39,223 bases of DNA from an uncultured Hyphomicrobiaceae bacterium (GCA_964352165.1 CAYGRH010000001.1:1-39223), one strand, 5' to 3'. Positions 1-27,225 are shown, numbered from the stretch's first letter. Translations and numbers: made by a program. The notes: a model not told the origin generated them from the sequence alone.

Positions 1-54
1 AGCAGCGGATTGAAAATCCGCGTGTCGGTGGTTCAAATCCGCCCCTGGGCACCA
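1..54 (+). tRNA. tRNA-Phe (anticodon GAA), 3' portion; the 5' part lies outside the window
   Basis: Anticodon stem-loop gcgga-TTGAAAA-tccgc with GAA at positions 34-36. Variable loop gtgtc. T arm ggtgg-ttcaaat-ccgcc. Acceptor 3' strand cctgggca plus CCA, ending at 54. Confidence 0.9.
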
Positions 55-2484: not shown

Positions 2485-2675
2485 GACCGGCTCTTTCGCT
2501 CGGCGCGCGCAATTGCAGGCACGGCGCAATCATTCCACCACCGGGTAAACCGGGCGATGGTCTCGCGGCGGTCCTGCTCTGTCGCCGTGCTCAAAAGATT
2601 GTGCTGCCTCTTGATCCGGCTTGCGGCCTTCAGGGCTTGCAACAGGATTTCGGTTTCATCGGCAGACATAGGCAA
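2481..2675 (-). CDS. Hypothetical 64-aa protein in the ardA operon
   Basis: ORF track. Its start overlaps the ardA stop and its stop overlaps the next start (ATGA). No family recognised. Confidence 0.4.
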   Translation of the reverse strand: MPMSADETEILLQALKAASRIKRQHNLLSTATEQDRRETIARFTRWWNDCAVPAIARAERKSRS

Positions 2676-3162
2676 GCCTCCGTCCGTCGATATGGATCAT
2701 GGCAAACTCAACCGCCAGATCGCGGGCGATGGCCTCATAGTCGATGTAATGGGCAAGATGCGCCGGGATCTCGCCATAGAGCGCTTCATCAACAAACTGC
2801 TCGGCTAGCTCTCGCAAGGACCCTGCTTCGTACAGATCCACCTCGAAATCGTCCGGCTCCACGCTTGCCGGATCGAAGCTGTAGCCGCATTCACCCACGG
2901 CGATGATGAAGCGCAGTTTTTGATCCTCTGACCAGTCGCCTGCCACTTCAAGAAAGCGGGAAAAATTGCACTGGCTCAGGCCCCAGGCATTAGCCAGCGC
3001 GGCATCGATGCGCTCACCGTCAATGAACTGGATTTCGAATTCTTTCACGGGCTGACCGTGGTCGTTTCGCAAGGCTGCCGCCTTGGCGGCGTAGCTTTCC
3101 GCGTCGTCAAAATAAAAGCCGCTCGCACTGATGTCGTAGGGCTGGGCGTAAAGTGTCGTCAT
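2656..3162 (-). CDS. ardA: ArdA-family antirestriction protein
   Basis: From internal Met MTTLYAQPYDISASGFYF. Acidic protein with the C-terminal motif YGEIPAHLAHYIDYEAIARDL, which resembles the ArdA/Tn916 Orf18 motif GEVPASLQNYIDYQAYGRDL as recalled from memory. Confidence 0.8.
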   Translation of the reverse strand: MTTLYAQPYDISASGFYFDDAESYAAKAAALRNDHGQPVKEFEIQFIDGERIDAALANAWGLSQCNFSRFLEVAGDWSEDQKLRFIIAVGECGYSFDPASVEPDDFEVDLYEAGSLRELAEQFVDEALYGEIPAHLAHYIDYEAIARDLAVEFAMIHIDGRRLAYVCR

Positions 3163-3559
3163 GGCTCTCGATCCTTTCAAAAGAGGGGTTCGCATGAACC
3201 CTTCTGGCCCTCGCCGAGAGCGGGGGTAGCAAGCGCAAGGAGGCTCCGGCCGAGGGGCCCCGCCTTCTTCAGGCGGGGAGACGGCTGGATGCCTTGCGCG
3301 CGCGAGGGGCGGCTGCCCCTGAGCACAAGACTGGCGTTCAATTTGCTGATGGTTTGATGGAGTATTGTTGCCCTGCGTCCGCGTCAGGGATGGAAGCCCG
3401 AAGGGCCGAGACGAGCCTCAAGCGCAGGCTCGGCGCGTGACAGCCCGGTCGCTGGCCGGACCTGCCAGCGAGGCGCTAGTCAAATGAACTTCAGGCCCAG
3501 ACCGTGTAATAAGAAGTGAAGTCTACGTCAAAACAGAACCGAAAGCCGACATTTAGTAC

Positions 3560-4034
3560 CCGCTGCGATTGGCCCCAACACACCAGTTCGGATTGCAAGC
3601 AGGCGCTTTAAGGCAGTCTCTGGCTCAAAGCGTCGTTAAGCGCGTGGTCAGCGACCTCCCAAAACTGGGGCTAACGCGTCGGAATTCTCGCTTCGAACTC
3701 AGACTGGCTGCTCTTGAAGGTCAATCTGACGCGGCCGACTTGGACGACCGCTGCCCCCATGATTCTCAGCCGAAATAGAGTCGGCCCGCTGCACCTGTGC
3801 CCGACATTGAGCCGTTGGACATTTGCACCGCAACGAGGTCGAACTTAACTTCATCCGCGGTCGCCGCCCGGCCAGCTGCTTTTTGCCAGCTACCAGAAAG
3901 TCTTTCGACCAGCGATAGCAGAGGTACTAGTTGATGCCCTCCTTGAGGCACAACTCGGCGATTATTTCCTTACCTGGCAGGACTTCGAGCACGATGCGGC
4001 TCTCCTCCTCGGAAGAGAACTTGCCGCGCGTCAC
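3560..4034 (-). pseudogene. Decayed IS3-family orfA (HTH transposase N-terminal part); no orfB
   Basis: Minus strand from GTG at 4034 reads VTRGKFSSEEESRIVLEVLPGKEIIAELCLKEGIN, then TAG (3927-3929), then YLCYRWSKDFLVAGKKQLAG. The continuation AATADEVK lies in a shifted frame (track ORF 3766-3951). The lower boundary is approximate. Confidence 0.45.
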
Positions 4035-4432
4035 TCTAGGAATATTCCAGCCGGCCGCGTCTGCGCTTCCCGGACGGCGCCCATTCCTGTCAGCCACCGG
4101 CTCCCTCCCAGGGGCTACGAAAAACCGGAATTTTTCTCTACGACAATCAGCTCAAACTGCCCCGAGGGCGCTGACGGGGGAACAGTCTGTATTCGCAATA
4201 TCATACGCTCAATAACAAAACGCACAAATTTCCAATTTTAAAAGCTGCGTGTACCAATAGTCCAATCCACCCGCATGTTGGCGAAGTTGCTAGGCAAATA
4301 CCTAGAATTGATACCCAACACCAATGCTTTCGTGAATAACTCCTAGGAACCTTCCCAATTCGCGCAATGCGAACGAATCAAACAGCAAGCTTTGTGGTTA
4401 TTTTCCGACACCAAAATAATTAGGAGGTGTCG

Positions 4433-5707
4433 ATGACATTCATTGAAAGTACATCCCCGTTCAATACGCTCGTAAATACGCCCAGAGATCCAGCCTTCTT
4501 AATTAAAAAGGTTGAAACGTATTACAGGGACCGGTTGAATAACACTTGGAACGGCGTCCATCCCATGAAAGGTAAGGCCCCAGGCCCATCCGATATCCAA
4601 GTCCGCACAAACGACTATCTCTGCTTAGCGTCTGACCCAAGAGTTATTGCCGCCGAAGTCAATCATTTGGAGGTTCATGGCCACGGTGAATCTGTGTCGA
4701 GAATATGGCTACATCACCAGAATGACATCTTACACCAATTCGAGGATAGGGTAGCTAATTTATTGGAAGCAGAAGCGGCCGTCCTTTGTAATTCAGGCTA
4801 TTGCGCTAATGTTGGCTTAATTCAATCTATTGTGGAACCTGGGTCTCCCGTCTTTATCGATATGAAAGCCCACGCATCGCTTTGGGAAGGTATAAAAAGT
4901 GCAGGTGCCAGGGCAATTCCGGTTCGCCATAATGATGCAGAGCACCTTTCCCGGCAAATCAAGAAAGAGGGGCAGGGAGTTATCGTTGTCGATGCCGTTT
5001 ATAGTATAGATGGAGATGTCTGCCCACTGAGAGAGTTTGTAGAGGTTTGCGAGCGTCATGGCTGCGCAATAATCGTGGATGAAACGCATTCATTCGGAAC
5101 ACAGGGGCGCTATGGCGCTGGGTTGACCGTCGCCCTAGGTCTTGCGGACCGAGTCCACTTTCGAACCATCGGGCTCTCTAAAGCGGTTCCATGTCGTGGG
5201 GGGCTGGTTATCTGCTCGCAACGGAATGCAGAGTTCCTCAGATACGAATCGCTCCCTGCGATTTTCAGCACGACGGTGCTCGGGCACGAAGTTGCGGCCT
5301 ATAACAAAGTGCTCGACATTTTTGCCAGCGAGCCGTGGCGGCGAAGCAAATTGCATAGCAACCACCGGCGGATACACGCAGCCCTAGATCAACTCGGTTA
5401 CAACGTGCAGGTTTCACGGTCCCAAATCATTGCGCTCGAGGCTGGGTCGATCTTGACAACGGTTAAGTTAAGAGACGCACTAGAACGGCGCGGGTTGTTT
5501 GGAGCCTTGTTTTTCCCGCCAGCGACCCCGGAAAAACGCTGCCTCATCCGCTTCACGGTTAATTGTGGATTGTCACCGGACGACATTAACCGAATCATAT
5601 CGATCTGTGCCGATGTGCGAACAGAAGTCGGCATGGAGCAATGGCCGTCCACGCGACGCAAGCATAAAGAAAACAGCCGTTCCAATTTAGGGGCTGTTGC
5701 GGCATAA
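4433..5707 (+). CDS. cqsA: CqsA/LqsA-type alpha-hydroxyketone autoinducer synthase (PLP-dependent, class I/II aminotransferase fold)
   Basis: AGGAGG lies 5 nt upstream of the ATG. Motifs TNDYLCLASDP, GYCANVGLIQSI, FIDMKAHASLWEGI, VVDAVYSIDG, VDETHSFGTQGRYGAGL, LPAIFSTTVL, SQIIALEAG and GLFGALFFPPATPEKRCLIRFTVN track V. cholerae CqsA segment by segment (from memory). Confidence 0.85.
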   Translation: MTFIESTSPFNTLVNTPRDPAFLIKKVETYYRDRLNNTWNGVHPMKGKAPGPSDIQVRTNDYLCLASDPRVIAAEVNHLEVHGHGESVSRIWLHHQNDILHQFEDRVANLLEAEAAVLCNSGYCANVGLIQSIVEPGSPVFIDMKAHASLWEGIKSAGARAIPVRHNDAEHLSRQIKKEGQGVIVVDAVYSIDGDVCPLREFVEVCERHGCAIIVDETHSFGTQGRYGAGLTVALGLADRVHFRTIGLSKAVPCRGGLVICSQRNAEFLRYESLPAIFSTTVLGHEVAAYNKVLDIFASEPWRRSKLHSNHRRIHAALDQLGYNVQVSRSQIIALEAGSILTTVKLRDALERRGLFGALFFPPATPEKRCLIRFTVNCGLSPDDINRIISICADVRTEVGMEQWPSTRRKHKENSRSNLGAVAA

Positions 5708-5714
5708 AATTCGG

Positions 5715-7082
5715 TTAGGCAACACATCTTGAGCGAGCCGATCCTTGCTGATCATTTGAACCGATTGGCGGCTCGCTTGGGACAACTGGTGGCAATTCGA
5801 TAATAATAGTTGTTCCCTCACCCAAAACAGTCTGGAAATGTATTGATCCTTGGAAGCTCTCCACAACATGCTTGCAGAATGCTAACCCAAGTCCGGTGCC
5901 TTCCATATATCGACCGCTTGTAGCAAAAGGAGTGAACACCGATTTCTGGATCTCCTTTGGAATGCCCGGGCCGTTGTCATTCACAATCAGGCTATTAACC
6001 CCGTCAATGCAATTGGTGGTTATAGTAATCATGTCACCTCTATCGACAGAAATCATCGCAAGGGAGTTCTTTAGGAGATTGAACAACACATGGACAAACA
6101 AAACCTTCGATCCAAAAAAATCAAAATCATGGTCAATATCCACGCGAACGGCCTCACGCTCACCTTTCCTAAAGGGATATCGAGCGATAGCATCCCGTAT
6201 TACGTCTCCAATTTTTGAGACCTGAAATTCCTCCTTGCTGAATCGGTCATGTTTTACCTTCAATAAGATCATATCAATCGCCATGCAGGCTCCTTCGGAA
6301 TGCTGCAAGATTCGAAGCAATGCTCCGCGGACGTCGCTATCGATCTCGACGAGTTCTTCAAGCTCAGATGAGGTCCCCTCGGCAGACAGGCCCGCCACCT
6401 TACTAATGACTTCATAGTCCTCTTGAATCCGCTCACAATCGAGTCTGATCCCAAGCAAAGGCGTCCTCATCTCATGAGCGATATTCGAAGCCAGCGCCTG
6501 GGCAGCGAGCAGTCTTTCGCCCGAAATTTGACGTTCACTATAGGTAAGAAAACCGATGGCAGAAATTGCGAACGCGTATATTGGGATACTCAAGAGAAAC
6601 GGCTCAGGTAGTGCCACCCATCCCTCCAGCGCAAGATATGCCGAAACGGCAGCCAAGTTTCCAACTACGAGAACGACCATCCCATTACGAAAGTCGTATA
6701 GTTGAACCACGAACAAAGTGGCAACCGTGGTAGACATTAACCAGGCATTGCTCCCATTATTCATCAAGAGCATGAATGTGAAGAAGAAGGGAAGACTGAA
6801 CAGGAGCGAAAAATACCCGAAGGCAAGATAGTACGGCTTAAGTTTTTCCGGCCACCAGCGCTCCGCTGCGAGGACCGAGCAAAAAAGCATACTGACTAAA
6901 CGAAGTTCGGGCGATTCGTATTCCTGCTTAAGCCAATATGTCCAAACCAAATAGTAGATGGGATGCGCACCCAATCCGAGAAGCCCGATGTAAGGCAGCT
7001 TGAACGGCGCGCGCTCGTGAAAACTGGCGTAAGATGCCTTAAGAGTTCCAATAGCCTTCTGGAGAAGTTGAAGTGGACTCAT
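5715..7082 (-). CDS. lqsS: Six-TM sensor histidine kinase of the CqsS/LqsS type, without a receiver domain
   Basis: Six hydrophobic segments in the first ~190 aa. H-box NIAHEMRTPLLGI and an HATPase region GPGIP...GTGLGLAFCKHVVESFQGSI. Convergent with cqsA, with only 7 nt between the stop codons. Confidence 0.75.
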   Translation of the reverse strand: MSPLQLLQKAIGTLKASYASFHERAPFKLPYIGLLGLGAHPIYYLVWTYWLKQEYESPELRLVSMLFCSVLAAERWWPEKLKPYYLAFGYFSLLFSLPFFFTFMLLMNNGSNAWLMSTTVATLFVVQLYDFRNGMVVLVVGNLAAVSAYLALEGWVALPEPFLLSIPIYAFAISAIGFLTYSERQISGERLLAAQALASNIAHEMRTPLLGIRLDCERIQEDYEVISKVAGLSAEGTSSELEELVEIDSDVRGALLRILQHSEGACMAIDMILLKVKHDRFSKEEFQVSKIGDVIRDAIARYPFRKGEREAVRVDIDHDFDFFGSKVLFVHVLFNLLKNSLAMISVDRGDMITITTNCIDGVNSLIVNDNGPGIPKEIQKSVFTPFATSGRYMEGTGLGLAFCKHVVESFQGSIHFQTVLGEGTTIIIELPPVVPSEPPIGSNDQQGSARSRCVA

Positions 7083-7218
7083 TTGAACCCTCGAATCAGT
7101 TCCTGGGACGCAATCCTTGCATCGGCCGGCCAGTTTGAGTTTCTAGGTGATTTAAATATCGGGCGCCCAAGCTGCAACCAGTCAGTTCTGGGTCAGTTCC
7201 AGCAAATGGATAGGGACT

Positions 7219-8169
7219 ATGCTGCCTCTTTATTACCCTACAACAGTTCTCGCGGTTGACGACGACAATGAATTTCTTGCGAGCTTTGAATACCGCTATC
7301 GGCGAAAATTCAAGTGTCATCTTACAAGCTCGCCCAGTGCTGCAATAGAACTCATAACCCAAGATGATAAAAAATTTCAAGAAAAGGTTCTGCTCAGCCA
7401 GTTTGGAGACATTGAGGGAGAAGAAGGCCCCAATATCGTTACACTGCGGCTATCGGAAATTGCTGCGATATCCGAGGCTCCTGACCACAGTGATAAAATA
7501 AGTGTTGTGGTAGTCGACTATGCCATGCCCGAAATGACAGGGGTAGAATTTTGCCGAGCTGTTGCCGATTGCAAGGTGAAGCGCCTGCTCTTGACAGGGA
7601 AAGCTGGATTGGAGCTTGCTGTGGACGCTTTCAACGAGGGGTTGATTGAATCTTTTGTTTTGAAGGGAGCTGCTGACGTTGGTTCAAAGATTGAGCGCGA
7701 AGTGAGAAGACTGCAGAACTTATTCTTTAAAGACGTAGCCGCCCCCATTACATCAATCAAAAATCTTCATGATTTTGAGTTCTTCCGGGACAAGGACTTT
7801 TGCCGACTCTTCGACAGACTGAAAAATGAGCTAAAAATATCTGAATACTTTCTTTCTGCATTTCCGCCAGGGTTAATAATCGTATCGCGTGATGGAAAAA
7901 AAAGGCTGCTACTTGTTTACAGTAAAGACATTATGCGCGCTCAATTCGAAACGGCGCTTCATGCAGAAGCGCCGTCGGAGTTATTGAGTATACTCGAAAG
8001 CAAGTCAGGAATTGTGGCATTTCCAGCTCCAATGGGGTTTTATAAAGAAACGTTTGCGGCGGTATGGGAAGACTACGTGTTTCCCTCGCAGCATGTGGCG
8101 GGCAGCGATCGGTGGTGGTGGACGATAGTCGAACCAATTGGTGATTTGAGCATGTTCAGGCCCCGCTGA
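7219..8169 (+). CDS. lqsR: LqsR-like response regulator: receiver domain with a large insertion plus an uncharacterised C-terminal domain
   Basis: VLAVDDDNEFL ... ISVVVVDYAMPEMTGVEF ... LLLTGKA gives the receiver signature, with the phospho-Asp near residue 100 after a ~40-aa insertion. There is no recognisable DNA-binding output. It is syntenic with the cqsA and lqsS homologues. Confidence 0.6.
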   Translation: MLPLYYPTTVLAVDDDNEFLASFEYRYRRKFKCHLTSSPSAAIELITQDDKKFQEKVLLSQFGDIEGEEGPNIVTLRLSEIAAISEAPDHSDKISVVVVDYAMPEMTGVEFCRAVADCKVKRLLLTGKAGLELAVDAFNEGLIESFVLKGAADVGSKIEREVRRLQNLFFKDVAAPITSIKNLHDFEFFRDKDFCRLFDRLKNELKISEYFLSAFPPGLIIVSRDGKKRLLLVYSKDIMRAQFETALHAEAPSELLSILESKSGIVAFPAPMGFYKETFAAVWEDYVFPSQHVAGSDRWWWTIVEPIGDLSMFRPR

Positions 8170-8219
8170 TATCTTTCGGAAGTAATCACCAAAATTGGAT
8201 AGTCCTGCTGCGTACAATA

Positions 8220-8507
8220 CTAATCAATTATACGCTGGCGGAGTGCGTAGGCAACTGCTTGTATCCTGGTTTTCACCTCGAGTTTTCGCTTGATGTTCTC
8301 GACATGATAATTGATGGTCTTAGGGCTAAGATTCAACTCTTGGCCAATTTGACTGTCGGACATACCCTCTGCAATCAGCGTCAGTATCGTAACTTCTCGG
8401 TTAGTGTAAATGCTTGCCGGAGTTTTATGAGGCATTGATTGTAACCTGATCACGCCGGTAACAGGGGTCCGCCCTGCAACATCCCTCAGTCGGTGATGCT
8501 GATTCAA
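8220..8507 (-). CDS. Small LuxR/GerE-type HTH regulator (HTH domain only)
   Basis: TNREVTILTLIAEGMSDSQIGQELNLSPKTINYHVENIKRKLEVKTRIQAVAYAL. Confidence 0.75.
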   Translation of the reverse strand: MNQHHRLRDVAGRTPVTGVIRLQSMPHKTPASIYTNREVTILTLIAEGMSDSQIGQELNLSPKTINYHVENIKRKLEVKTRIQAVAYALRQRIID

Positions 8508-8539: not shown

Positions 8540-8842
8540 CTAAATGCTTCGATAGAAGTGCTTGATCGGTATCTTGTAAATCTCCGCGATTGCAAAGAGC
8601 AACATTGGTGGCGTCCTATTAAAACCAACTTCTAGCCGGCGGAGCTCAAGTTCCGAAATGCCCAACTGTAATCCCAATTGAGAGGCCGGCATTCCGGCAG
8701 CTTCACGCAACCGCCGAATGCGGCGGCCAACGGCAAGGTCGATGGGGTGTAAAGCTGGTTCCGAGTGCTGAAAGTGCCGTGCTGCTATCTCAGACCTCTG
8801 ATCATCCGTGCCCGCGTTTGACAATGATCTGGCCCCCATCAT
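8540..8842 (-). CDS. XRE-family HTH regulator
   Basis: VGRRIRRLREAAGMPASQLGLQLGISELELRRLEVG. It sits 33 nt upstream of the LuxR-type gene on the same strand. Confidence 0.7.
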   Translation of the reverse strand: MMGARSLSNAGTDDQRSEIAARHFQHSEPALHPIDLAVGRRIRRLREAAGMPASQLGLQLGISELELRRLEVGFNRTPPMLLFAIAEIYKIPIKHFYRSI

Positions 8843-9061
8843 CGGGCGTTCCGAAGGAACGCTGATCGATTGTTTGTCAGCACTAGGTTGTCACCTAGTT
8901 CCTTGTGAAGCACAAGAGTGTTAGTAATCTAGCTTGATAATGGGCAGGTTGGGAACCTATATCTGCCCGTGGTTCTCGTTTTCCGCAACGTCCAGAAATC
9001 ATGGCGCTTTTTGGGTCGAACAACTAGGCCGTTGCTTGAGAATGAGCATTGTTGATTCAAA

Positions 9062-9316
9062 GTGGCGTTCGTTCAGACAGGCAAGGCCTTGACCATTTCG
9101 GCTGGTCCGACATCTAAATTGACAAAGATCGAAGAAGCAGTCTTGGAACTCTGCAGTGAGGGCTATTCTGATCTTGAGATCTCTCGGCAGCTTTATTCTT
9201 GCCCCCAAGTTGTGCGTAACATTTTTTTACGTATAAACAAAAAGTTAGGGGCAAAAAACAAGACGCATGCTGTCGCCTTATGGATTGGGAATCAGGACCC
9301 TATTTCAAAGCGATAA
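9062..9316 (+). CDS. Small LuxR/GerE-type HTH regulator (GTG start)
   Basis: LTKIEEAVLELCSEGYSDLEISRQLYSCPQVVRNIFLRINKKLGAKNKTHAVALWI. Confidence 0.6.
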   Translation: MAFVQTGKALTISAGPTSKLTKIEEAVLELCSEGYSDLEISRQLYSCPQVVRNIFLRINKKLGAKNKTHAVALWIGNQDPISKR

Positions 9317-9738: not shown

Positions 9739-10575
9739 ATGCAACTGAGTTCGGAATTGATGGCCTGGCTACCTAGCCTGCGTCGTTACGCCAGAGCGTT
9801 AACAGGTTCGCAGGACGCCGGTGATGATCTAGTCGTTAGGGCTTTAGAACGGCTTAGTATAGGTCCTCGTTTGGCCGACGACATTGCTCCGAAGATTGGT
9901 TTGTACAAAGTGGTCTCTGATGTTTGGAACAGTGTGATCGGGAAACACATTATGGATATGGCGGCCAAAGGAAGCTTGGCAGCGGCTGCTGACGAACGCA
10001 TCGGTCAACTCGAAGGGATACCCAGACAAGCCTTTTTACTCGTGGCTATGGAGAAGCTGACGCCGACCGAGGCGGCTATCGTACTTTCTCTTTCCGAGCA
10101 CGAATTTAAATCTGAACTCGCCAAAGCCCGGCACGACGTGGCCAGCCAAGTTGCAACCGATGTGCTTGTGATCGAAGATGAGCTTTTCATTGCTGCCGAT
10201 CTAGAGAAAATTCTCACTGATCTCGGCCACAATGTTGGTCCGGTAGCCCGGACCCATTCTCAAGCGGTTGCGGTCGCACGACGACAAAAGCCAGGTCTAA
10301 TAGTATCAGATATTCAGCTGGCTGATGACAGCAGTGGGATCGATGCTGTGCGTGATATTCTCGAATTTTCGTCAGCGCCAATAATCTTTGTCACATCTTA
10401 TCCAGAGTTATTGTTGACCGGGACACGACCCGAACCGATTTTTCTTATTAAGAAGCCGTTTTCAAGTGACGAAGTTCGTGGAGTGGTTTCTCAGGCTTTA
10501 TTTTTCCGACAGAATGCTCGCGCCTCGGATATTGCGGAAGGAGCGGTGCGATTATCGGGTCAGAGAAGTCACTGA
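9739..10575 (+). CDS. phyR: PhyR, the general-stress-response anti-anti-sigma response regulator (ECF-sigma-like N domain plus receiver)
   Basis: N terminus LPSLRRYARALTGSQDAGDDLVV and the region-4-like segment LTPTEAAIVLSL. Receiver VLVIEDELFIAADLEKIL...GLIVSDIQLADDSSGIDAV...IIFVTSYPE. RBS ctaggag. Confidence 0.9.
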   Translation: MQLSSELMAWLPSLRRYARALTGSQDAGDDLVVRALERLSIGPRLADDIAPKIGLYKVVSDVWNSVIGKHIMDMAAKGSLAAAADERIGQLEGIPRQAFLLVAMEKLTPTEAAIVLSLSEHEFKSELAKARHDVASQVATDVLVIEDELFIAADLEKILTDLGHNVGPVARTHSQAVAVARRQKPGLIVSDIQLADDSSGIDAVRDILEFSSAPIIFVTSYPELLLTGTRPEPIFLIKKPFSSDEVRGVVSQALFFRQNARASDIAEGAVRLSGQRSH

Positions 10576-13087: not shown

Positions 13088-13412
13088 CTCATCTCTGGTC
13101 CACCTATTTAGCAAAACGATAAATTTCTTTATCGCCCGAACCTTGCGCTTCTTGTTTAGGTCCGCGTGCGATCCAAAACGAATCGGCGAATAAAGCAAGA
13201 TTTGTACGCCCATTAGAATGTAAAAAATTAGGGCGCGACGACAATATGACCAGCTTATTTACCATGATCGAACCCCGATAATAATTTTTCGAACTATACC
13301 TCATTCAAAGCATCTCATTATAGTTGCGACAGCCCACCCATCAAGCCAGATGACCCCTTATTGGAATTGATGTGCTTCGAAAGTAAATTGAGGAACGGAC
13401 TCGGAGGTGAAG

Positions 13413-14261
13413 ATGCAAGAAACAGTTGGAATGTTAAGTCGAGTTTTCGGAGATTCGCAAACTTCTAAGATTCAGTTTTCGGGTTCCCAATCGGATCTCA
13501 TACGTGCAGCGAATGCAGAGATTGAAAACTTTGGTGTTTTAGTGGCTGTCGTTTCAAGCATTCTGAATGAGTTGCGCGACAGTGGTGCGACGTCCATACC
13601 AGTTACTATTCGTCGCTTTATACCCTCCACTCCTGTCGTGCTTAAGCAGTTTTCAAAGTTGTCGAGACCAATTTCAACAACTGATATCGAGACCCACCTT
13701 GTTTATCTCGGCGCACAAATTTCGGTTGGCCAGTATCAACTGCGTCGGTCCCTGGAAGATCAAACAGACTTTCTATCTCATCTCGAAGTTGATCAGGTTT
13801 GCCATGCCTGGAGGGGCATTTGTGACCAGGTTCTTCTTGTAATGGCTGACCTTGATCTGCTTGCTGACGACATGGGTTGCGGGGCAATGGATCAAATGTG
13901 TCGGAAGGAACTAGAAGCGCATCTCGCAGACGCGCGAGACGGTGGCAGGCGACTGAGCTTGAGTCGTGATGTCGACTTCCAACGTTGGTCCCAGAACCGG
14001 CGCCATCGGCGGGTCTTGTTGAATGCCATGGGAACAGCTTATTGCATGGGGGAAGCGAGGCCAGTGCTCGTTACGGATGCATCTGTCGGCGGAGTTGGGC
14101 TTGATTTTGCGGAAGGTTTTCTTGAGGGGGAAACCATCAAGTTGGCGCTTCCCATGGGACGTGAGTTCGTCGGCAGGGTGGCGTGGTCTGCAGGCACTCG
14201 AGTAGGGGTTCAGTTTGATAAGGAGCTGGATCAGCATGACGTATTGTTTGATTTCGAGTGA
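13413..14261 (+). CDS. PilZ-domain protein with an uncharacterised ~200-aa N-terminal domain
   Basis: GGAGG lies 5 nt upstream of the ATG. The C terminus carries the c-di-GMP binding motifs RRHRR (RxxxR) and DASVGG (DxSxxG). Confidence 0.75.
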   Translation: MQETVGMLSRVFGDSQTSKIQFSGSQSDLIRAANAEIENFGVLVAVVSSILNELRDSGATSIPVTIRRFIPSTPVVLKQFSKLSRPISTTDIETHLVYLGAQISVGQYQLRRSLEDQTDFLSHLEVDQVCHAWRGICDQVLLVMADLDLLADDMGCGAMDQMCRKELEAHLADARDGGRRLSLSRDVDFQRWSQNRRHRRVLLNAMGTAYCMGEARPVLVTDASVGGVGLDFAEGFLEGETIKLALPMGREFVGRVAWSAGTRVGVQFDKELDQHDVLFDFE

Positions 14262-14874: not shown

Positions 14875-15018
14875 GTTTACCAGATCAGAATGAGTGTTTA
14901 CACTCTGCCGGATAATGATTCGAAGTAATGGTCATTCATCGCTCAGCGCTCGACCGTCTTTATGAATATTTGACCATTGAAAGTATATCGTCAATCAATT
15001 CAAGGAGCCGGGAGTGCC

Positions 15019-15213
15019 ATGATCGTTGACGAAGTTACAGCACCAGGACCGTGGGCAGACCAAGTGAATGATGATGACCCGATTATCGATGAAAACATCG
15101 AAGTCGAGCTCGGGAGAGTTCTGCGCGAAGCCTATGCTGATGTACTGGAGGAGCCAATCCCTGAAAGGTTTCACGAACTGATTAGGAAATTGAAGAATGA
15201 GACAGTGGCGTGA
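15019..15213 (+). CDS. nepR: NepR anti-sigma factor
   Basis: A 64-aa protein with the NepR signature LGRVLREAYADVLEEPIPERFHELIRKL. Its TGA overlaps the GTG of the ECF sigma gene. Confidence 0.8.
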   Translation: MIVDEVTAPGPWADQVNDDDPIIDENIEVELGRVLREAYADVLEEPIPERFHELIRKLKNETVA

Positions 15214-15845
15214 CCAAACATTCCATTCCATTCGATCAACTCCTCCTGTCCAAAGTTCCAAGTTTACGCGCCTATGCGCGTTCGCTTTGCCGAGATCCAA
15301 ACCTTGCCGATGACATCGTCCAGGATGCTTTGCTTGCGGCATGGACTAAAAGAGCTTCCCTGCGCGATCTGGATGCTATTAAGCCGTGGCTTTTGACAAT
15401 CGTACGAAACACGTACTTGGCGCACGTGCGCCGCTGCAGAAAAGAAGTCGAAGATGTGGATGGACGTCTTGCAGCCCGACAGTCCGCTCCCGCCACACAG
15501 GAAACGTCGAGCGAACTTAGCGATGTTAAAAGAGCTATGAACGCGCTCTCTGATGAAGAACGCGAAGCCCTGGTTTTGGTTTGCATTGATCAACTTACTT
15601 ATCAAGAAGCTGCGCAAGTATGCGCGTGCCCGGTTGGCACTATAAAAAGCAGAGTCAACAGAGCAAGGTCCCAACTTCTTGCCTACCTAAAGGACGACTC
15701 GTTTTATTTTACGTCCTCACGAGCCGCAAATGGGATTATCGAGGCTAGAGTATCCACTGCCGAGAAGCCGCAGAGGCGGCCAGAAACGCGGAACAAGAGT
15801 TTGAAGAGTTATAAACCTTTGCGTCCAGCGCAGGCTGTTGCATAA
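15210..15845 (+). CDS. ecfG: EcfG-type ECF sigma factor with a ~35-aa C-terminal extension
   Basis: Region 2 DIVQDALLAAWTK...KPWLLTIVRNTYLAHVRR, then KEVEDVDG. Region 4 EREALVLVCIDQLTYQEAAQVCACPVGTIKSRVNRARSQL. Confidence 0.9.
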   Translation: MTKHSIPFDQLLLSKVPSLRAYARSLCRDPNLADDIVQDALLAAWTKRASLRDLDAIKPWLLTIVRNTYLAHVRRCRKEVEDVDGRLAARQSAPATQETSSELSDVKRAMNALSDEEREALVLVCIDQLTYQEAAQVCACPVGTIKSRVNRARSQLLAYLKDDSFYFTSSRAANGIIEARVSTAEKPQRRPETRNKSLKSYKPLRPAQAVA

Positions 15846-15952: not shown

Positions 15953-16876
15953 TCAACGAGCCGAGTTACCAAGCAGCAAAAACTTGAGAAAACTCCGCAT
16001 CTCGAATAATTTTTCAGTTACGCTCAAGCCACATCTACCCTTGCCGCTCCATGCGACACGACATCGAGCTGATTGGCCATTTGGCGTCAGGACCTCAGTT
16101 TCAGCGCCTTTCGATAGGTGAAAATTCGTAATCAGCCCGAACCCAGAATCCGAAATATCAAAGATTGTCGCGTTTTCTGAGCTCTCCTCTGTCTTAATGA
16201 TACAATTAAGACTGACCAGCATTCGCGGACTGGTTCTTTTCTCAACGAACGATGTAATATTTAGCTCGCCGTTCTCATTCGCCGATGGCCATCCGCCAAC
16301 CGCAGCTTCGACAAGGTCTGCATCGAAGTCGAAATGCACCCGCTCTCCACTGTTGTACTCAGCAACGTAGTACTGCGCTTCTATGCTTAGAAGTGCCCTG
16401 AGCGCCCGTTGTAACTGGCTGCAGGTGGTTCGCCACTGATTTGCTGCCTTTGCAAAATCATCTGACGAGTGTTCTATAGGCGCAGAGGGTGCGATGAGGT
16501 TAGTGACAAGCAGTGCGTTGCTTAGACTGTTCAAAAATTCGCCGACCATACCAGCAACATTACGCGGAAGCCCACACGACTTAAAGCGGCTGAGCACTGC
16601 ATTCTGCGGCCCAATATGGCTACTACCGATTGCTAAGACTTGGGAGCAGGCCCGACTTGTGAAGCAGTTGCGATTTACTCCAAAGTTCAGAAGGCTCGTC
16701 ATCGCCGTTACAATAGGCACAAGCGTATATAATGCCGCGCGGGCCTCACGCACCTCTTGGCTCAAAACCAGACGTATCGGGGACACCCCATTAGAGATGC
16801 AGAGTGAATTCTGGACGATGCCCAGATCTATCGACTCGTGCTCATCGAGCTCAAACACGGAAATTGGTGCCATCAT
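15953..16876 (-). CDS. PilZ-domain protein, distant paralogue of 13413-14261
   Basis: RTSPR (RxxxR) and DISDSG (DxSxxG) near the C terminus. The N-domain segment AANQWRTTCSQLQRALRAL parallels VCHAWRGICDQVLLVMADL in the other protein. Confidence 0.75.
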   Translation of the reverse strand: MMAPISVFELDEHESIDLGIVQNSLCISNGVSPIRLVLSQEVREARAALYTLVPIVTAMTSLLNFGVNRNCFTSRACSQVLAIGSSHIGPQNAVLSRFKSCGLPRNVAGMVGEFLNSLSNALLVTNLIAPSAPIEHSSDDFAKAANQWRTTCSQLQRALRALLSIEAQYYVAEYNSGERVHFDFDADLVEAAVGGWPSANENGELNITSFVEKRTSPRMLVSLNCIIKTEESSENATIFDISDSGFGLITNFHLSKGAETEVLTPNGQSARCRVAWSGKGRCGLSVTEKLFEMRSFLKFLLLGNSAR

Positions 16877-17465: not shown

Positions 17466-17753
17466 ACGTCTCCGATTGCTTCCGGAGGCGGACGGCTGTC
17501 GCATCAAACATCTGAACTTGGCTCGGTGCGCTATCGACAACGGACTGGCTCCAGCAAGAAAACGAAATCTCTTGCCAATGAGATGCACTCCGAGCCCAAA
17601 GGGTTCGCAACGTTCCAACTATTTTTCGCAATCTCAAGGTGTGGAGGAGATTTAGAGAAAAGTAGAAACGTTCACGAAAATTAAATAAACTTTTGGCGTA
17701 TGCTGGAAGAATTCCGATTCGAATAGTTTGTGCCTTGCGGCCGGAGCTTTACG

Positions 17754-20348
17754 ATGCCTAACAGAATTGGCAATGCCCATCGCCATCTCAGCTTGCTCGG
17801 GCTCTACCCGACGATTTTCGTCGTGGTTTTACTCATTGGGATCGCGTGGACAACGGCTGTCAATCGCGGCATTCAGTCAGCTCACGAAGAAATGTTGTTG
17901 CTAGAAGGAAAACTCAAGAACGTCGGTGTAACGCTCTCGCATAATGTGGCGCGAACGTCGAGCGAGCTCGACACGCTACTCCAATTTATGCGAGCTATGC
18001 GAAAGTCGAAAAGTACCGAGGTTCCGTGGTCTGAAATAGTGTCGGAAGACTACACGCTTAACCGGCATACAGTACAAATTGCTGTCATTGCAAAAGATGG
18101 AATGATGGTGACTAGCACAAAGATGCTCAACCCACAGAAGCCAGTTGACTTAAGCGATCGGGAGCATTATCGCGTCCACCTTCATGGGAGCAGCGACCAG
18201 CTTTTTATTAGTAAACCCGTAATTGGTCGCGCCTCCAAAAAATGGAGTGTTCAATACACGCGCCCCCTTTACGACTCTGCCGGTGCTTTCGACGGGGCAA
18301 TTGTTGTTTCCTTCGATCCGGATAAATTCACGCAAATGTATGAAAAATTAGACCTTGGAAATGGTGGCGTTATTATCGTCGGGACCGACTCTATAGTGCG
18401 CGCAGCCTCTGGACTTTTTTCGAGTTCTCTAGGCTCCAGAATTGAAATGTCGGGACATGGAGTCAAGTTCTTGCAATCTGACGGGGTCAAATCGATCGAT
18501 TCTGATCAGAATCGCTTCAAGGATATCGTGTACGTGACGCAGGATGTCGAGGGATACCCGCTGAAAGTTATTGTCGCTGCAGAGGCAAGGATATCGTTCT
18601 TTTCGATTGGCAATGCAATATATTTGCTAGTTGCTGCGGTTTTCTCGGTTATTGCGATCTATATTGGTGTAAGCAATTACTCGCATCGTCGAAGGGAGCT
18701 GGAGTTATTGGGTGAAAGCAATGCGGCCCTGATTGACAAGGGTGTCGCAGAAGCAGCCAACAAAACAAAAGGCGAGTTCTTAGCAATAATGAGCCACGAA
18801 ATTCGTACACCGCTAAATGGTGTTCTAGGATCACTGGACCTCATTTCCAGCCACAAACTTCCAGCAGAAGCTATGAAAAGCTTGGATGTTGCAAAGTCTT
18901 CGAGCGAATATCTGCTCTCACTTATCGACGACATACTCGTTTATTCAAAACTCGAAGCCGGAAAAATTGAACTCGATAAACAGCCGTTCTCACTCCTTAA
19001 GTTCATAGGGGATCTAGAGGTTTTCTTTCGGCCGCTTACGGAGTCGACGGATAACAAGTTTTGCGTTCAAATATTGGGTGAAATTCCGGGTCAAGTTTTA
19101 GGCGACCAGTTCAGGCTCCGGCAGGTTTTGCTCAATTTACTAGGGAATGCCAACAAGTTTACTAGCGCGGGGAGTATTCAACTGACTGTTCGCTCGCAAA
19201 GTAGCGCTGATCAAACTTCTGCGAAAATTCAGTTCTCGATAGAAGACACAGGGGTAGGAATACCCATCGATAAGCAAGCCTTGGTCTTCGAAAAATTTCA
19301 ATCTTTGGACGCAAGCTATTCGAGAAGATCGGATGGTACTGGTCTTGGCCTCGCCATTTGTAACAGTATAATGCGTGCCATGGGTAGTCGCTTGAACTTA
19401 GTCAGCGAATATGGTGTCGGAAGCACATTCTTTTTCGAAGTCGAATTACCCAAAGCTGAAAATGAAAATTTAATGCTTCAAGCGGTTCGAAAAGCCATTT
19501 CTAAAACCGACTTCAGAACATTAAGTATTCTGCTGGCGGAAGACAATGAAACTAACGCCTACATAGCGACAGAGTGCTTGGTTCGCGAGGGACATTCGGT
19601 GGTCCGCGCTACAGACGGAGTCCAAGCCGTTGCTCGGGCAAACGCGGTGCAATACGATCTCATCTTGATGGATGTATCTATGCCGAACATGGATGGCTTG
19701 ACGGCATCACTAGCGATCCGGTCTCATCATGGTCCCAATCAATTTACACCAATCGTCGCCCTGACCGCGCATGCAGAATCTGGAACGGAGGAAAAGATCA
19801 GAGAGTGTGGGATGAACGCATATTTGACGAAGCCCATTCGGCGAGAACGGCTGTTGATTGCAGTTCAAGAATTTAGTGTTCAATCTGCGGTCAACTTGTT
19901 GCGGACGAATAACGCCCTGATTGCTTCAAATGATTCTCAAGGGGACCTATCGATGTGCGTTAGTGATTGTGAATTAGAATCGGATGGCCTTGCTGCCTTC
20001 CTCCGCGATAGGGAAATCGATGAGTCATCTCCGTTATTCAGAATTTTTATAACCGAGATGGATACAAAGAGAACCCTTCTTGATCAAGCTATAGCCGAAA
20101 AGAATATTAAAGCGGTCGGGCGCATCGCTCATGCTGTTTTGGGGAGTTCATCAACAATCGGTGCCGCCAAGCTCGCCGCGCATTGCAGGCTTTTGGAAGC
20201 CGAATGTCGCAGTCCTCGCCAAGTCGACTGGCGCCTTGCTATATCGACTCTGCACGCGATCGACAGCACTGTTAACGATTTCAAGGCCATCGTTGCCACG
20301 ATGTCGGAACGAAAGAAAGTCGAGGTAGCAACTGTTTCCGCCGCCTAG
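17754..20348 (+). CDS. Hybrid sensor histidine kinase: TM, Cache-like periplasmic domain, TM, HisKA, HATPase, REC, Hpt
   Basis: DREHYRVHL...ISKPVIGRASKKWSVQYTRPLYD (Cache-like). FLAIMSHEIRTPLNGV (H-box). GTGLGLAICNSIM. ILLAEDNETN...LILMDVSMPNMDG (REC). HAVLGSSSTIGAAKL (Hpt). Confidence 0.9.
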   Translation: MPNRIGNAHRHLSLLGLYPTIFVVVLLIGIAWTTAVNRGIQSAHEEMLLLEGKLKNVGVTLSHNVARTSSELDTLLQFMRAMRKSKSTEVPWSEIVSEDYTLNRHTVQIAVIAKDGMMVTSTKMLNPQKPVDLSDREHYRVHLHGSSDQLFISKPVIGRASKKWSVQYTRPLYDSAGAFDGAIVVSFDPDKFTQMYEKLDLGNGGVIIVGTDSIVRAASGLFSSSLGSRIEMSGHGVKFLQSDGVKSIDSDQNRFKDIVYVTQDVEGYPLKVIVAAEARISFFSIGNAIYLLVAAVFSVIAIYIGVSNYSHRRRELELLGESNAALIDKGVAEAANKTKGEFLAIMSHEIRTPLNGVLGSLDLISSHKLPAEAMKSLDVAKSSSEYLLSLIDDILVYSKLEAGKIELDKQPFSLLKFIGDLEVFFRPLTESTDNKFCVQILGEIPGQVLGDQFRLRQVLLNLLGNANKFTSAGSIQLTVRSQSSADQTSAKIQFSIEDTGVGIPIDKQALVFEKFQSLDASYSRRSDGTGLGLAICNSIMRAMGSRLNLVSEYGVGSTFFFEVELPKAENENLMLQAVRKAISKTDFRTLSILLAEDNETNAYIATECLVREGHSVVRATDGVQAVARANAVQYDLILMDVSMPNMDGLTASLAIRSHHGPNQFTPIVALTAHAESGTEEKIRECGMNAYLTKPIRRERLLIAVQEFSVQSAVNLLRTNNALIASNDSQGDLSMCVSDCELESDGLAAFLRDREIDESSPLFRIFITEMDTKRTLLDQAIAEKNIKAVGRIAHAVLGSSSTIGAAKLAAHCRLLEAECRSPRQVDWRLAISTLHAIDSTVNDFKAIVATMSERKKVEVATVSAA

Positions 20349-24877: not shown

Positions 24878-26287
24878 ATGTTGAAAAACAAAGCAACAAT
24901 GCTTTGCCCATTTGCAGGCATTTGCACCCGTTTGGCAGCCATGGTGCTTTTCTTAGCTTGGTCGCTCATGCCTTATCCAACTTCCGCCGATACCCTAAGT
25001 GGCGTTGTGCTGGAGGCGCTCGATACAAACCCGGAACTCGGAGCGATTCGCTACAACCGGGACGCGATCGACCAGGAGTTGCGGGCCGCCCGCGGCCTGG
25101 GCCTTCCCACCCTGGACGTGAAGAGTGAATTCGGCCGTCACCGCGACAGCCTCAAGACGCCGCTGGGGATCGAAAACTCCGACGATTGGCATGCCCATCG
25201 TGACGTGTCTCTGATTATGTCGCAGCGGGTCTTCGATGGCTTCGAGCGCACACATGAAGTTGCCCGCCAGAAAAACCGCGTGGAGTCCGCCCGCTGGCGC
25301 GTTGCCGACACGGCGAACTCCATCGCTCTGCGCACCGTCCAGGCCTACTTCGAGGTGCAGCGCTCAGCCTCCGTCCTGGCCGCGGCCCAGTCCAATCTCT
25401 CCGCCCTCGAAGGGTTGCGCGCCCGTGTCTATGCCCGCGTTGATGCGGGCCACGGCAACGCCGCTGAGGAGACAGAAGCAGGTTCGCGGGTTGCCAATGC
25501 GAGCGCCCTGGTGATCGAAGCTCAGGCCCGGCTCGAAGACGCCAGATCGCTGTTCCGCTCCGTCGTCGGTCGTGGACCGGGGAGCCTCGCAGGTGCCCAG
25601 GTGCCAAGGAAGGCTTTGCCCTCAACCGTTGAAGCCGCTGTCGCCGAAGCGCGCCGCGCAGCGCCTTCGATCATCGCAACCCAGCACGATACGGTTGCCG
25701 CTCAAGCCTCCATCGGCTCAGCTTACTCACGCTTCTACCCCAAGCTCAACGTCGAATTGTCCACCTACCACGGCAAGGGCATCGATCAGGACAGCGATCG
25801 CGACCTGGATGCCCGCGCTATGCTGGTCGTGCGCTGGAACCTCTTCAACGGCGGCATCGACCGCGCCCGCATTCACGAAGCAGCCGCCCGCGCCGGCGAA
25901 GCTTCCGAAATCGCAGCCAACACGCAACGAATCGTAGAGCGCGAAACGCGTGTGTCATGGAATGCGATGGTTGCCGCGCACGGCCGGGTGCCGACTCTGC
26001 GCAAACAGTTGCAGCTCGCCCGCGCCACGCGCGCCACCTACTCCGATCAATTCGATACCGGTGCCCGCAGGCTCCTCGATCTCCTAGACGCACAAAGCGA
26101 AGTCTTCGTCGCAGAAGCCGCCCTGCGCACCGAGGAGTTCATTGGCACGTTCAATTCGTTCCGCGTTCTGGCCGCAATGGGCAAGCTCGTCTGGGCGCTC
26201 GGTATGGACATGCCGCCACAGGCTGTTGACCCCCATCAGCAATCGATCTTCGACAGTTGGAAAACGACCGTAATCCGACACGACTAA
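24878..26287 (+). CDS. TolC-family outer membrane efflux / type I secretion protein
   Basis: Signal peptide, then LSGVVLEALDTNPELGAIRYNRDAIDQELRAARG, and a second repeat EAVAEARRAAPSIIATQHDTVAAQASIGSAYSRFYPKLN. No adjacent ABC or MFP genes. The start is ambiguous between 24878 and 24899. Confidence 0.8.
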   Translation: MLKNKATMLCPFAGICTRLAAMVLFLAWSLMPYPTSADTLSGVVLEALDTNPELGAIRYNRDAIDQELRAARGLGLPTLDVKSEFGRHRDSLKTPLGIENSDDWHAHRDVSLIMSQRVFDGFERTHEVARQKNRVESARWRVADTANSIALRTVQAYFEVQRSASVLAAAQSNLSALEGLRARVYARVDAGHGNAAEETEAGSRVANASALVIEAQARLEDARSLFRSVVGRGPGSLAGAQVPRKALPSTVEAAVAEARRAAPSIIATQHDTVAAQASIGSAYSRFYPKLNVELSTYHGKGIDQDSDRDLDARAMLVVRWNLFNGGIDRARIHEAAARAGEASEIAANTQRIVERETRVSWNAMVAAHGRVPTLRKQLQLARATRATYSDQFDTGARRLLDLLDAQSEVFVAEAALRTEEFIGTFNSFRVLAAMGKLVWALGMDMPPQAVDPHQQSIFDSWKTTVIRHD

Positions 26288-26804
26288 GATTTCATCGATA
26301 GCGAAAGCCGTGGAGTTCGTGACCAAATACTTTCTTTAAGTTCATTGTATTTTTCAATGTAAGCGGAAATTTAGTGTGCCAGGACCGAAGGACCCAATAT
26401 AGGGTAAAGCATTTTGAACACACGAATGCAGTTTCGTGGTTTGTCCAGGTGGATTGCTTTGGAATTTCCACTCCTGGCTCAGCATCGCGGTTTGCGGTTC
26501 GACAGCGAGCCCCCGTGGTAGTGTAAAAATCGGAACGCTACGGTCTTTACTATCAAGATTGGTGGCGCCGCTCTCCGCCTCACGTCCTGATTAATGCGAT
26601 ACCGGCCCGTCGGTGGCAAAAGAGGTCGAAAACTCTAGCTCCTAGTGAGGGCGCATTGGGGAGCGGATCACTTCCGTTGCGGCAGCTCAAGCGGACGTTT
26701 CGGAGCGTGGCGGAACGGTCAAAAGTGCCCCCGGCCGGACTTTCTCAACCTCGTTCGCAGGATTAAAGTCTCGACAATTGTTAATCAGAACTCGGCTTTC
26801 ACCC

Positions 26805-27225
26805 ATGCCTATGCCGCTTGAATACTCCAACGCCTCTCAGGATTTCGAAGCGTTCTTGGATGACGCCGTGGAGGAATTGGATTTGGCCACGAGAACATGA
26901 CCTACACTACTATTCAAGCAGTACTCGTGGTATTTCGGCGCCGCTTAACATTCCGTGAGGCGATTGCCTTTGCGGCCGTACTTCCAGCCGTCCTTCGGGC
27001 CATTTTTGTTGCTGACTGGGAGCTAAGCGCAGAACGCCTAACTTTTGGTACAGTCGACACCATGAATGACGAGGTCAAGCTCCTCTGTCGCAATCACAAT
27101 TTTCACCTGATAATTCCATTCAGCGGGTCGCCAAGGTCCTGCAACGCCACGATGACAATGATCGGTTGAGGCGCGTTGTTACGCAAATTTCCCCCGAAGC
27201 TGAGGGCTATTGGCGGACCAGCTAG
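26805..27225 (+). pseudogene. DUF2267-like gene broken by two frameshifts
   Basis: Three consecutive frames read as one protein. First MPMPLEYSNASQDFEAFLDDAVEELDLATR. Then TYTTIQAVLVVFRRRLTFREAIAFAAVLPAVLRAIFVADWE (track ORF 26897). Then PDNSIQRVAKVLQRHDDNDRLRRVVTQISPEAEGYWRTS, ending at TAG 27223-27225. Confidence 0.55.

Follow-up and report, generated by a model that had tools for sequence, protein, structure and literature searches.

Positions 4433 to 8169 of a 39,223-nt stretch of DNA from an uncultured Hyphomicrobiaceae bacterium (GCA_964352165.1 CAYGRH010000001.1:1-39223), referred to below as the window, very probably carry a functional alpha-hydroxyketone (AHK) quorum-sensing module of the Cqs/Lqs type. 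The module consists of three intact open reading frames (ORFs), which encode a CqsA/LqsA-type autoinducer synthase, an LqsS-type sensor histidine kinase and an LqsR-type response regulator, the kinase gene lying on the opposite strand to the other two (Table 1). A first-pass annotation made from the sequence alone had read the region as such a cluster within an alphaproteobacterial mobile element, and this reading is followed up here. The protein matches lie far past chance, with E values between 1e-33 and 1e-141.

All three genes have been maintained. On comparison with the corresponding genes of a Logan metagenome contig (L001; 75-80% nucleotide identity), the ratio of non-synonymous to synonymous substitution rates (dN/dS) was 0.07 for both the synthase and the kinase, and 0.14 for the regulator. 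At the saturating dS of this comparison (0.9-1.6), these values point to long-term purifying selection on all three genes.

The synthase belongs with CqsA and LqsA

The synthase gene was taken to start at the ATG at 4433, which is preceded by an AGGAGG box and gives a protein of 424 aa; an alternative GTG is present at 4427. The protein falls in the Pfam family Aminotran_1_2. It was observed to score 471 bits on the NCBIfam model NF005526, the equivalog for alpha-hydroxyketone-type quorum-sensing autoinducer synthases, whose curated cut-off is 428. Scores on the sister models were all below cut-off: BioF, 260 bits (cut-off 426); serine palmitoyltransferase (SPT), 241 bits or less (500 or more); Kbl, 199 bits (460); and aminolevulinate (ALA) synthase, 159 bits (339). 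Among solved structures, the best match was V. cholerae CqsA (PDB 3hqt; 281 bits, E 9e-83), while the next family, SPT, reached 155 bits. The annotation had described the protein as following V. cholerae CqsA block by block, and every motif that it listed was seen in the HMMER alignment to 3hqt. Overall identity is 39% to Legionella LqsA and 37% to V. campbellii CqsA. The residues of the pyridoxal phosphate (PLP) site, H147, D216, H219 and K250, align with H133, D204, H207 and K236 of E. coli BioF and were invariant in 20 out of 20 sequences.

Profile searches and a phylogeny against BioF, Kbl and SPT had been proposed as the way to check this identification, with clustering beside BioF or Kbl as the result that would tell against it. 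A neighbour-joining tree, in which E. coli BioF and Kbl served as outgroups, placed the synthase within the CqsA/LqsA group, in a subclade of alphaproteobacterial members (93% bootstrap), where its lineage is sister to a Rhodomicrobium-type subclade (90% bootstrap). The gene is also paired with a CqsS/LqsS-type kinase gene in more than 70 of the loci that we fetched. It is hardly credible that the enzyme is instead a metabolic alpha-oxoamine synthase (BioF, Kbl or SPT) lying beside a two-component system by coincidence: the common fold and superfamily and the sub-threshold matches to BioF, SPT and Kbl would fit such an enzyme, but the sister scores are far under their cut-offs while the AHK model is passed, CqsA leads the best SPT in the structure search, the tree groups the protein with LqsA and CqsA, and the pairing with the kinase recurs in independent loci. 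By homology, the protein is a CqsA/LqsA-type AHK autoinducer synthase.

The kinase is homologous to LqsS and CqsS along its whole length

The kinase had been described as having six N-terminal transmembrane helices and no receiver domain, an architecture found in LqsS and LqsT rather than in the CqsS hybrid, and this description holds. In its 455 aa, Pfam gives HisKA and HATPase_c alone, and the protein ends 23 residues past HATPase_c. Six hydrophobic segments can be read by eye in the N-terminal ~185 residues (~28-49, 59-75, 83-106, 112-128, 133-152 and 158-180), of which a 19-residue hydropathy scan strongly flagged just three. As references we used a Legionella lqs locus, found via the PDB 6SY9 sequence, and the V. 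campbellii cqs locus, listed in PLSDB as a 'plasmid'. The kinase is 31% identical to Legionella LqsS across residues 7-433 (E 2e-39) and 31% identical to V. campbellii CqsS across residues 22-433 (E 3e-51). A receiver is present at 574-686 of V. campbellii CqsS, a 690-aa hybrid; none is present in Legionella LqsS (429 aa) or in the window kinase. The phospho-acceptor H203, within HEMRTP, aligns with the H-box IAHELRTPL of LqsS, and the N-box (335), G1 (369) and G2 (395) boxes are all present.

The membrane domain, whose kinship with the CqsS/LqsS sensor had been named as a point on which the identification could fail, gives a gapless alignment to LqsS residues 1-190 (30% identity, E 1e-6). A hidden Markov model (HMM) of this N-terminal domain, for which 117 homologues but not the window protein were used, gave 207 bits for the window kinase, 184 for Legionella LqsS and 151 for V. 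campbellii CqsS, and zero matches among shuffled sequences and the other membrane proteins of the window. Judged on these alignments, the kinase is a homologue of Legionella LqsS and Vibrio CqsS along its whole length, including the membrane domain.

In CqsS, the acyl-tail length that is accepted depends on C170 in V. cholerae and F175 in V. harveyi, a small residue tolerating longer tails (PMC3285556). Unlike either Vibrio protein, the window kinase has a threonine at this position (Thr180; codon ~6543-6545, minus strand), and Legionella LqsS an asparagine. Thr180, being small, weakly suggests a tolerance of longer acyl tails, as judged from pairwise alignments.

The regulator is an LqsR homologue in both domains

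The regulator gene was said to encode a receiver with a large insertion before the phospho-acceptor aspartate, followed by an unassigned output domain, which is the make-up of LqsR. The protein matches L. pneumophila LqsR (PDB 6SY9) with an E value of 1e-33 over residues 4-268 and is 33% identical to a Legionella LqsR. Some 85 residues separate its acidic pair (D14/D15) from the acceptor D100, with residues 60-72 forming a low-confidence loop, and the C-terminal domain of ~160 aa matches no Pfam family. In alignments of 23-26 family members D14, D15, D100, T126 and K149 were invariant, and these residues make up a full receiver phospho-acceptor set. D100 aligns with the aspartate of VVVDYAMP in LqsR and is the counterpart of LqsR Asp108 (PMC5289986).

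The fold agrees with the alignments. For an AlphaFold model of the regulator (mean predicted confidence, pLDDT, 87), Foldseek returned 6SY9 as the sole full-length structural match (template-modelling scores 0.74/0.76), the other matches being to the receiver only; a separate model of the C-terminal domain matched 6SY9 alone (E 1e-7). By sequence and predicted fold, the regulator is an LqsR homologue, and the homology covers both domains. Neither Pfam nor the Foldseek search with the C-terminal domain gave a DNA-binding domain.

A link of LqsR to cyclic di-GMP (c-di-GMP) signalling and a GGDEF-like output domain have been proposed, as cited in PMC10653808. We looked for such a resemblance and did not reproduce it: hhalign of the LqsR output domain against the GGDEF domain of a neighbouring gene product gave a probability of 0.1%, and Foldseek on the C-terminal model gave no GGDEF or PleD match.

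Relation to known AHK systems

The module resembles the Lqs system of Legionella pneumophila in its three protein families, its receiverless kinase, close in length (429 aa in the Legionella locus, L005), its separate LqsR-type regulator and its conserved His and Asp phospho-sites, with identities of 39%, 31% and 33% for synthase, kinase and regulator. It differs in gene order, as had been pointed out: the window has A(+) S(-) R(+) whereas the Legionella locus reads lqsA-lqsR-hdeD-lqsS. It also differs in lying on a mobile element, and its regulator is shorter at the C-terminus by ~25 residues. The lack of an hdeD-like gene, also noticed at first pass, was borne out, since tblastn with Legionella HdeD (DUF308) found nothing in the window (best E 1.1). 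In Legionella itself, hdeD counts as an unrelated intruder (PMC8023197), so its absence here is the norm. Neither the gene order nor the lack of hdeD is peculiar to this locus; both belong to the standard alphaproteobacterial arrangement. A second, LqsT-like kinase was not found in the window.

With the Vibrio CqsA/CqsS system the module has in common a homologous synthase (37%) and six-helix sensor domain (31%), whose genes are likewise adjacent and convergent (106-nt gap in V. campbellii). In Vibrio, however, the receiver at the C-terminus of the hybrid CqsS feeds LuxU and LuxO, and there is no LqsR. The JQS system of Janthinobacterium sp. HH01 (jqsA, jqsS, jqsR), likened here by description, likewise consists of three genes (A/S/R) and belongs to an environmental bacterium that is not a pathogen, but it is betaproteobacterial, and in the order typical of beta- and gammaproteobacteria S and R share one strand with A convergent. 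A jqsA mutant is complemented by both cqsA and lqsA (PMC3566124). PhcX of Ralstonia solanacearum has the regulator family in common with the window, with a receiver and a family-specific output domain (PMC10653808); unlike the window regulator, which keeps its ancestral Lqs partners, PhcX is uncoupled from lqsA/lqsS and linked to the phc system.

The module is also like other alphaproteobacterial clusters (PMC10653808 Table S5; the fetched Hyphomicrobium/Rhodomicrobium loci L009-L048), which have the identical lqsA(+) lqsS(-) lqsR(+) order, synthases at 57-67% identity and tight convergent 3' ends. These catalogued clusters differ in being chromosomal and in that their synthase and kinase ORFs mostly overlap, by 23-147 nt. 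The block in the window adds small GerE and XRE regulators, palindromes and a PhyR/NepR/EcfG set, and its kinase and regulator are 33-43% identical to those of the catalogued clusters.

Distribution and relatives

GTDB was scanned with the regulator alignment, using one genome per species; a word-indexed protein search with the regulator had given only 23 relatives. LqsR relatives were observed in 325 GTDB species. Of the 80 best fetched GTDB loci, about 75 contain all three genes, in two arrangements. The order A(+) S(-) R(+) is found in 39 loci (a count that includes the window and the fetches L001-L004/L041, some of identical sequence), most of them from Hyphomicrobium, Rhodomicrobium, Hyphomicrobiaceae, Methyloligellaceae or unnamed Alphaproteobacteria. 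The order S(+) R(+) A(-) is found in 34 loci, mostly beta- or gammaproteobacterial, including Paraburkholderia xenovorans LB400, a species already named in the literature (PMC3376566).

Earlier reviews place AHK systems in Legionellaceae, Vibrionaceae, Burkholderiaceae, Chlorobiaceae and Oxalobacteraceae (PMC5289986). A later survey found LqsR/PhcX orthologues in 310 RefSeq species, 16 Alphaproteobacteria among them, and its Table S5 gives 'lqsA(+)..lqsS(-)..lqsR(+)' for Rhodomicrobium vannielii (ATCC 17100) (Liu et al. 2023, PMC10653808). The nearest relatives of the window genes are in two Logan metagenome contigs (L001 and L002; synthase 88%, kinase 81%, regulator 72% identity) and a Pseudomonadota metagenome-assembled genome (L003; 68%, 49% and 39%), and all others are at 67% or less, 43% or less and 40% or less. 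By its sequence, then, the window copy is a divergent lineage, while its architecture, gene order and alphaproteobacterial presence are already on record, as both PMC10653808 and the GTDB loci show them.

The convergent junction

The stop codons of the synthase and kinase genes are, as had been noticed, only 7 nt apart. A consensus scan for a terminator-like site found none at this junction, and it holds no unusually stable hairpin (fold z-score -0.74), only short inverted repeats. Overlap of the convergent transcripts, which the annotation took to be necessary, is a reasonable expectation from a 7-nt gap with neither a terminator nor a stable structure. Elsewhere the stop-to-stop gap is 29 nt (L003), 49 nt (L001) or, as in V. 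campbellii, wider. In Hyphomicrobium-type loci there is no gap: the two ORFs share exactly 132 nt in 22 species, and 23-147 nt in a further nine; the overlap was checked in L031 (4547-4678). Tight or overlapping convergent 3' ends are the norm in the alphaproteobacterial clade, and the 7 nt of the window are part of this wider pattern.

The module lies in the cargo of a mobile element

The GC content of the window is 59-61% up to ~4.0 kb and then ~46-50% over most of the stretch to ~25 kb. Exactly at this drop (~59% to ~48%) sits a remnant of an IS3-family (insertion sequence) transposase gene, orfA, which marks the left edge of the lqs-carrying cargo block. The window begins within a tRNA gene; tRNA genes are a typical integration site of genomic islands and integrative and conjugative elements (ICEs). 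We looked in the window for an att repeat of the tRNA 3' end and found nothing beyond the tRNA itself. Further genes of a mobile-element kind encode ArdA, a serine resolvase and a TraG-type coupling protein. The best tblastn matches of TraG, at 38% identity or less, are mostly to alphaproteobacterial plasmids, and a megablast of window positions 25000-39223 against plasmids gave no match.

The window runs collinear with L001 between position 4256 and at least position 16776, so that the conserved block is at least 12.5 kb long. Its gene order is lqsA, lqsS, lqsR, GerE1(-), XRE(-), GerE2(+), PhyR, PAS-GGDEF-EAL, a 148-aa ORF, PilZ, NepR, an EcfG-type sigma factor and a second PilZ. The corresponding block borders on a tyrosine integrase in L001, and TraG is the neighbour of the three lqs genes in L003. 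GerE1, a small stand-alone protein with a LuxR-type (GerE) helix-turn-helix (HTH), is encoded convergently with the regulator; its real start is probably an internal ATG at 8435. Homologues of GerE1 adjoin the regulator gene in L001, L003, L014, L026, L044 and L045, and those of GerE2 are found in L001 and L003, while the XRE-type protein is common to the window, L001 and L002 only. The PhyR/NepR/EcfG and PilZ arrangement is common to the window and L001. PhyR/NepR/EcfG is the general stress response system of Alphaproteobacteria.

The description of the region as an alphaproteobacterial mobile element thus agrees with several features: all three proteins have their closest relatives in Alphaproteobacteria, the PhyR/NepR/EcfG set is present, and the window holds ArdA, the resolvase, TraG, the IS remnant and the tRNA fragment. 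The stress-response set and the phylogeny together support an alphaproteobacterial host. That the lqs module is low-GC cargo of a conjugative-type mobile element is supported; 'mobile element' is well supported, the type of element is not.

Further downstream in the low-GC region lies a gene for a large hybrid histidine kinase. Many Hyphomicrobium loci likewise have hybrid kinases close to their lqs genes, as generic domain matches.

Table 1. Positions of the lqs module and of other features in the window
Feature	Position	Strand	Basis
tRNA, 3' part, cut by window start	1-51	+	Rfam tRNA, 35 bits
ArdA	2656-3195	-	
IS3-family transposase OrfA remnant, internal stop	~3860-4034	-	Pfam HTH_Tnp_1, E 3.6e-5
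Exact palindrome CTAGGCAAATACCTAG, 128 nt upstream of synthase start, candidate operator	4290..4305	.	
lqsA/cqsA-type PLP-dependent autoinducer synthase, 424 aa	4433..5707	+	NF005526, CqsA 3hqt match
Spacer between convergent stop codons, 7 nt	5708..5714	.	ORF coordinates
lqsS-type sensor histidine kinase, 455 aa; six-helix membrane sensor domain, HisKA, HATPase_c, no receiver	5715..7082	-	Pfam, LqsS/CqsS alignments
lqsR/phcX-family response regulator, 316 aa; receiver with long insertion, family-specific output domain	7219..8169	+	6SY9 match, Foldseek
GerE1, small stand-alone LuxR-type (GerE) HTH protein	8220..8507	-	Pfam GerE, E 2.9e-19
XRE-type HTH protein	8540..8842	-	Pfam HTH_31 and HTH_3
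Exact palindrome CTAGGTTGTCACCTAG, divergent promoter region between XRE/GerE1 genes and GerE2	8883..8898	.	
GerE2, second small GerE-type HTH protein	9062..9316	+	Pfam GerE, E 3.6e-07
PhyR	9739-10575		
PAS_7-GGDEF-EAL protein, 595 aa	10723..12510	+	Pfam
PilZ-domain gene, first	13407-14261		
NepR	14977-15213		
EcfG-type sigma factor	15210-15845		
PilZ-domain gene, second	15953-16876		
Large hybrid histidine kinase: dCache, HisKA, HATPase_c, receiver, Hpt	17730-20348	+	
Serine resolvase	30479-31090	-	
TraG-type coupling protein	36865-38616		

Proposed mode of action

The Legionella signal is LAI-1 (3-hydroxypentadecan-4-one), and those of Vibrio are CAI-1 and Ea-C8-CAI-1. By analogy with these systems we infer the signal chemistry, the direction of kinase regulation, phosphotransfer between the kinase/regulator pair and the output of the window module. 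The PLP-dependent synthase would condense an amino-acid-derived donor with a fatty acyl-CoA, giving an amino-enone or alpha-hydroxyketone that resembles CAI-1 or LAI-1 and bears a medium or long acyl tail. Such a signal would partition into membranes, and the kinase would bind it through its six-helix sensor domain. LqsS is known to autophosphorylate on His200, and LqsR to be phosphorylated on Asp108 and then to dimerise, while LAI-1 inhibits the Legionella kinases (PMC5289986). If the window proteins behave like LqsS/LqsT and CqsS, the kinase would autophosphorylate on His203 when signal is low and pass the phosphate to Asp100 of the regulator, and binding of the signal would inhibit the kinase, leaving the regulator dephosphorylated at high cell density. 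Having no DNA-binding domain, the regulator probably acts via partner proteins by phosphorylation-dependent dimerisation. As cargo, the module would travel as one block of at least 12.5 kb together with the small LuxR-type and XRE regulators, the PhyR/NepR/EcfG set and the c-di-GMP genes.

Several points weigh against reading the region as a functional mobile AHK module. The closest GTDB relatives are only 33-43% identical for kinase and regulator and 57-67% for the synthase, and the regulator is without the C-terminal 20-25 residues that are found in most family members. Convergent transcription across stops 7 nt apart, with no terminator between them, could hamper expression. There is no integrase or relaxase inside the window to show the type (ICE or plasmid) or the borders of the element.

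Leads on the output of the module

We know of no organism in which the output of an LqsR-type regulator has been identified. The window offers two leads. The first is a palindrome, CTAGG-N6-CCTAG, of which two exact sites are present in the window against 0.01 expected. The site upstream of the synthase gene lies inside a conserved non-coding block and has a counterpart at the matching position in L001 (12777-12792). The site between the XRE/GerE1 genes and GerE2 has counterparts in L001 (8183-8198) and in L003 (8249-8264), the latter between the two GerE genes of that locus. In the other 88 fetched loci the palindrome was not found. It has the look of an operator recognised by one of the small HTH proteins, and as a candidate of this kind it would tie them to synthase expression.

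The second lead is the PAS_7-GGDEF-EAL gene, whose product has the motif SGDEF together with intact EALLR and DDFGTG motifs. In 27 of the 39 loci with the window-type order, a count that includes the window and L001, as against 4 of the 34 with the beta/gamma-type order, a full-length homologue (39-45% identity) is encoded on the regulator strand, downstream of the regulator gene; homologues, a few of them in betaproteobacterial loci, were seen in L009-L048, L037, L040, L043, L050, L057 and L072. This genomic linkage suggests that AHK quorum sensing may be connected with c-di-GMP, though much of it could be shared ancestry within one clade.

In Hyphomicrobium sp. 1Nfss2.1 (L031), a gene for a FadL/TodX-type outer-membrane channel that passes hydrophobic compounds (7059-8339, plus strand) lies between the LqsR-type and PAS-GGDEF-EAL genes; it is not present in the window. 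Such a channel is a conceivable route for a hydrophobic autoinducer.

These leads bear on a possible, if doubtful, alternative, that the cluster is a signalling system whose main logic is not that of Legionella. Here the LqsR-type protein would be a mere phosphate sink or modulator, and the output would run through the GerE/XRE proteins acting on CTAGG-N6-CCTAG, through c-di-GMP turnover by the PAS-GGDEF-EAL protein, or both. Such a scheme would fit a regulator that has no DNA-binding domain, an exact palindrome that is confined to the region ahead of the synthase gene and the interval between the GerE genes and is kept in L001 and L003, GerE genes that flank the regulator gene in several lineages, and the PAS-GGDEF-EAL gene so often found downstream of it; it would also sit with the c-di-GMP role proposed for LqsR, as cited in PMC10653808. 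Linkage is not interaction, however. Much of the PAS-GGDEF-EAL synteny lies in one genus-level clade, in which the cases are not independent, and neither hhalign nor Foldseek brought the LqsR C-terminal domain near a GGDEF domain.

A broader proposal, which we regard as unlikely, is that the block from ~4.2 kb to at least 16.8 kb is a self-contained mobile 'signalling island'. In such an island the LqsR-type regulator would work via its co-transferred partners, the GerE-type HTH proteins would close an autoinduction loop by binding CTAGG-N6-CCTAG operators ahead of the synthase gene and of their own genes, the PAS-GGDEF-EAL protein would turn cell density into a change in c-di-GMP, and a private PhyR/NepR/EcfG set would tie in the stress response. 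If this were true, the output partners that are missing for the LqsR family would come to light in this lineage.

It is very unlikely that the cluster is a decaying or silent passenger of the mobile element, its signalling function lost. Its position as low-GC cargo beside an IS remnant, the close convergent spacing without a terminator, with possible transcriptional collision, and the shortened C-terminus of the regulator could be read in this way. Against this, the three ORFs are intact, every catalytic residue tested is kept, dN/dS against L001 is low at saturating dS, and tight or overlapping convergent ends are normal in the clade. A functional AHK module remains our preferred reading.

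Significance

Experiments on AHK signalling are, to our knowledge, confined to Vibrio, Photobacterium, Legionella and Janthinobacterium, and we know of no alphaproteobacterial system that has been characterised, though genome surveys list them. The window points to a complete, selected Lqs-type module able to travel on conjugative-type DNA between Alphaproteobacteria. Its travelling companions are stress-response and c-di-GMP genes, so that a single transfer could equip a recipient with a complete channel of communication. The shared palindrome and the widely conserved PAS-GGDEF-EAL neighbour are concrete leads on how LqsR-family regulators without a DNA-binding domain may give an output. The advance is incremental, as the family, its architecture and its alphaproteobacterial presence were documented before. 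What is new here is the placement of the cluster in low-GC, conjugative-type cargo, its linkage to a PhyR/NepR/EcfG module and a conserved PAS-GGDEF-EAL gene, and the CTAGG-N6-CCTAG palindrome as a candidate operator; the extra interest lies in this mobility and in these companions.

Related sensor genes on plasmids

Two plasmid loci carry parts of such systems. On the conjugative plasmid 1 of Polaromonas sp. JS666 (L007, 3878-6239), genes for an LqsS-like kinase and an LqsR-like regulator are co-directional and overlapping and lie beside a BREX defence system. A synthase gene is absent from the 9 kb fetched, and the two proteins may form an 'eavesdropping' pair. On a plasmid of Paraburkholderia caribensis (L008, NZ_CP013105.1, 2936-6577), a CqsS-like sensor domain is fused in an 858-aa hybrid protein. 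In place of a CqsA-type synthase, the hybrid gene is preceded by a KAS III-like gene (C-terminal domain of 3-oxoacyl-acyl carrier protein synthase III), and this locus may combine a different signal synthase with a receptor from the CqsS family.

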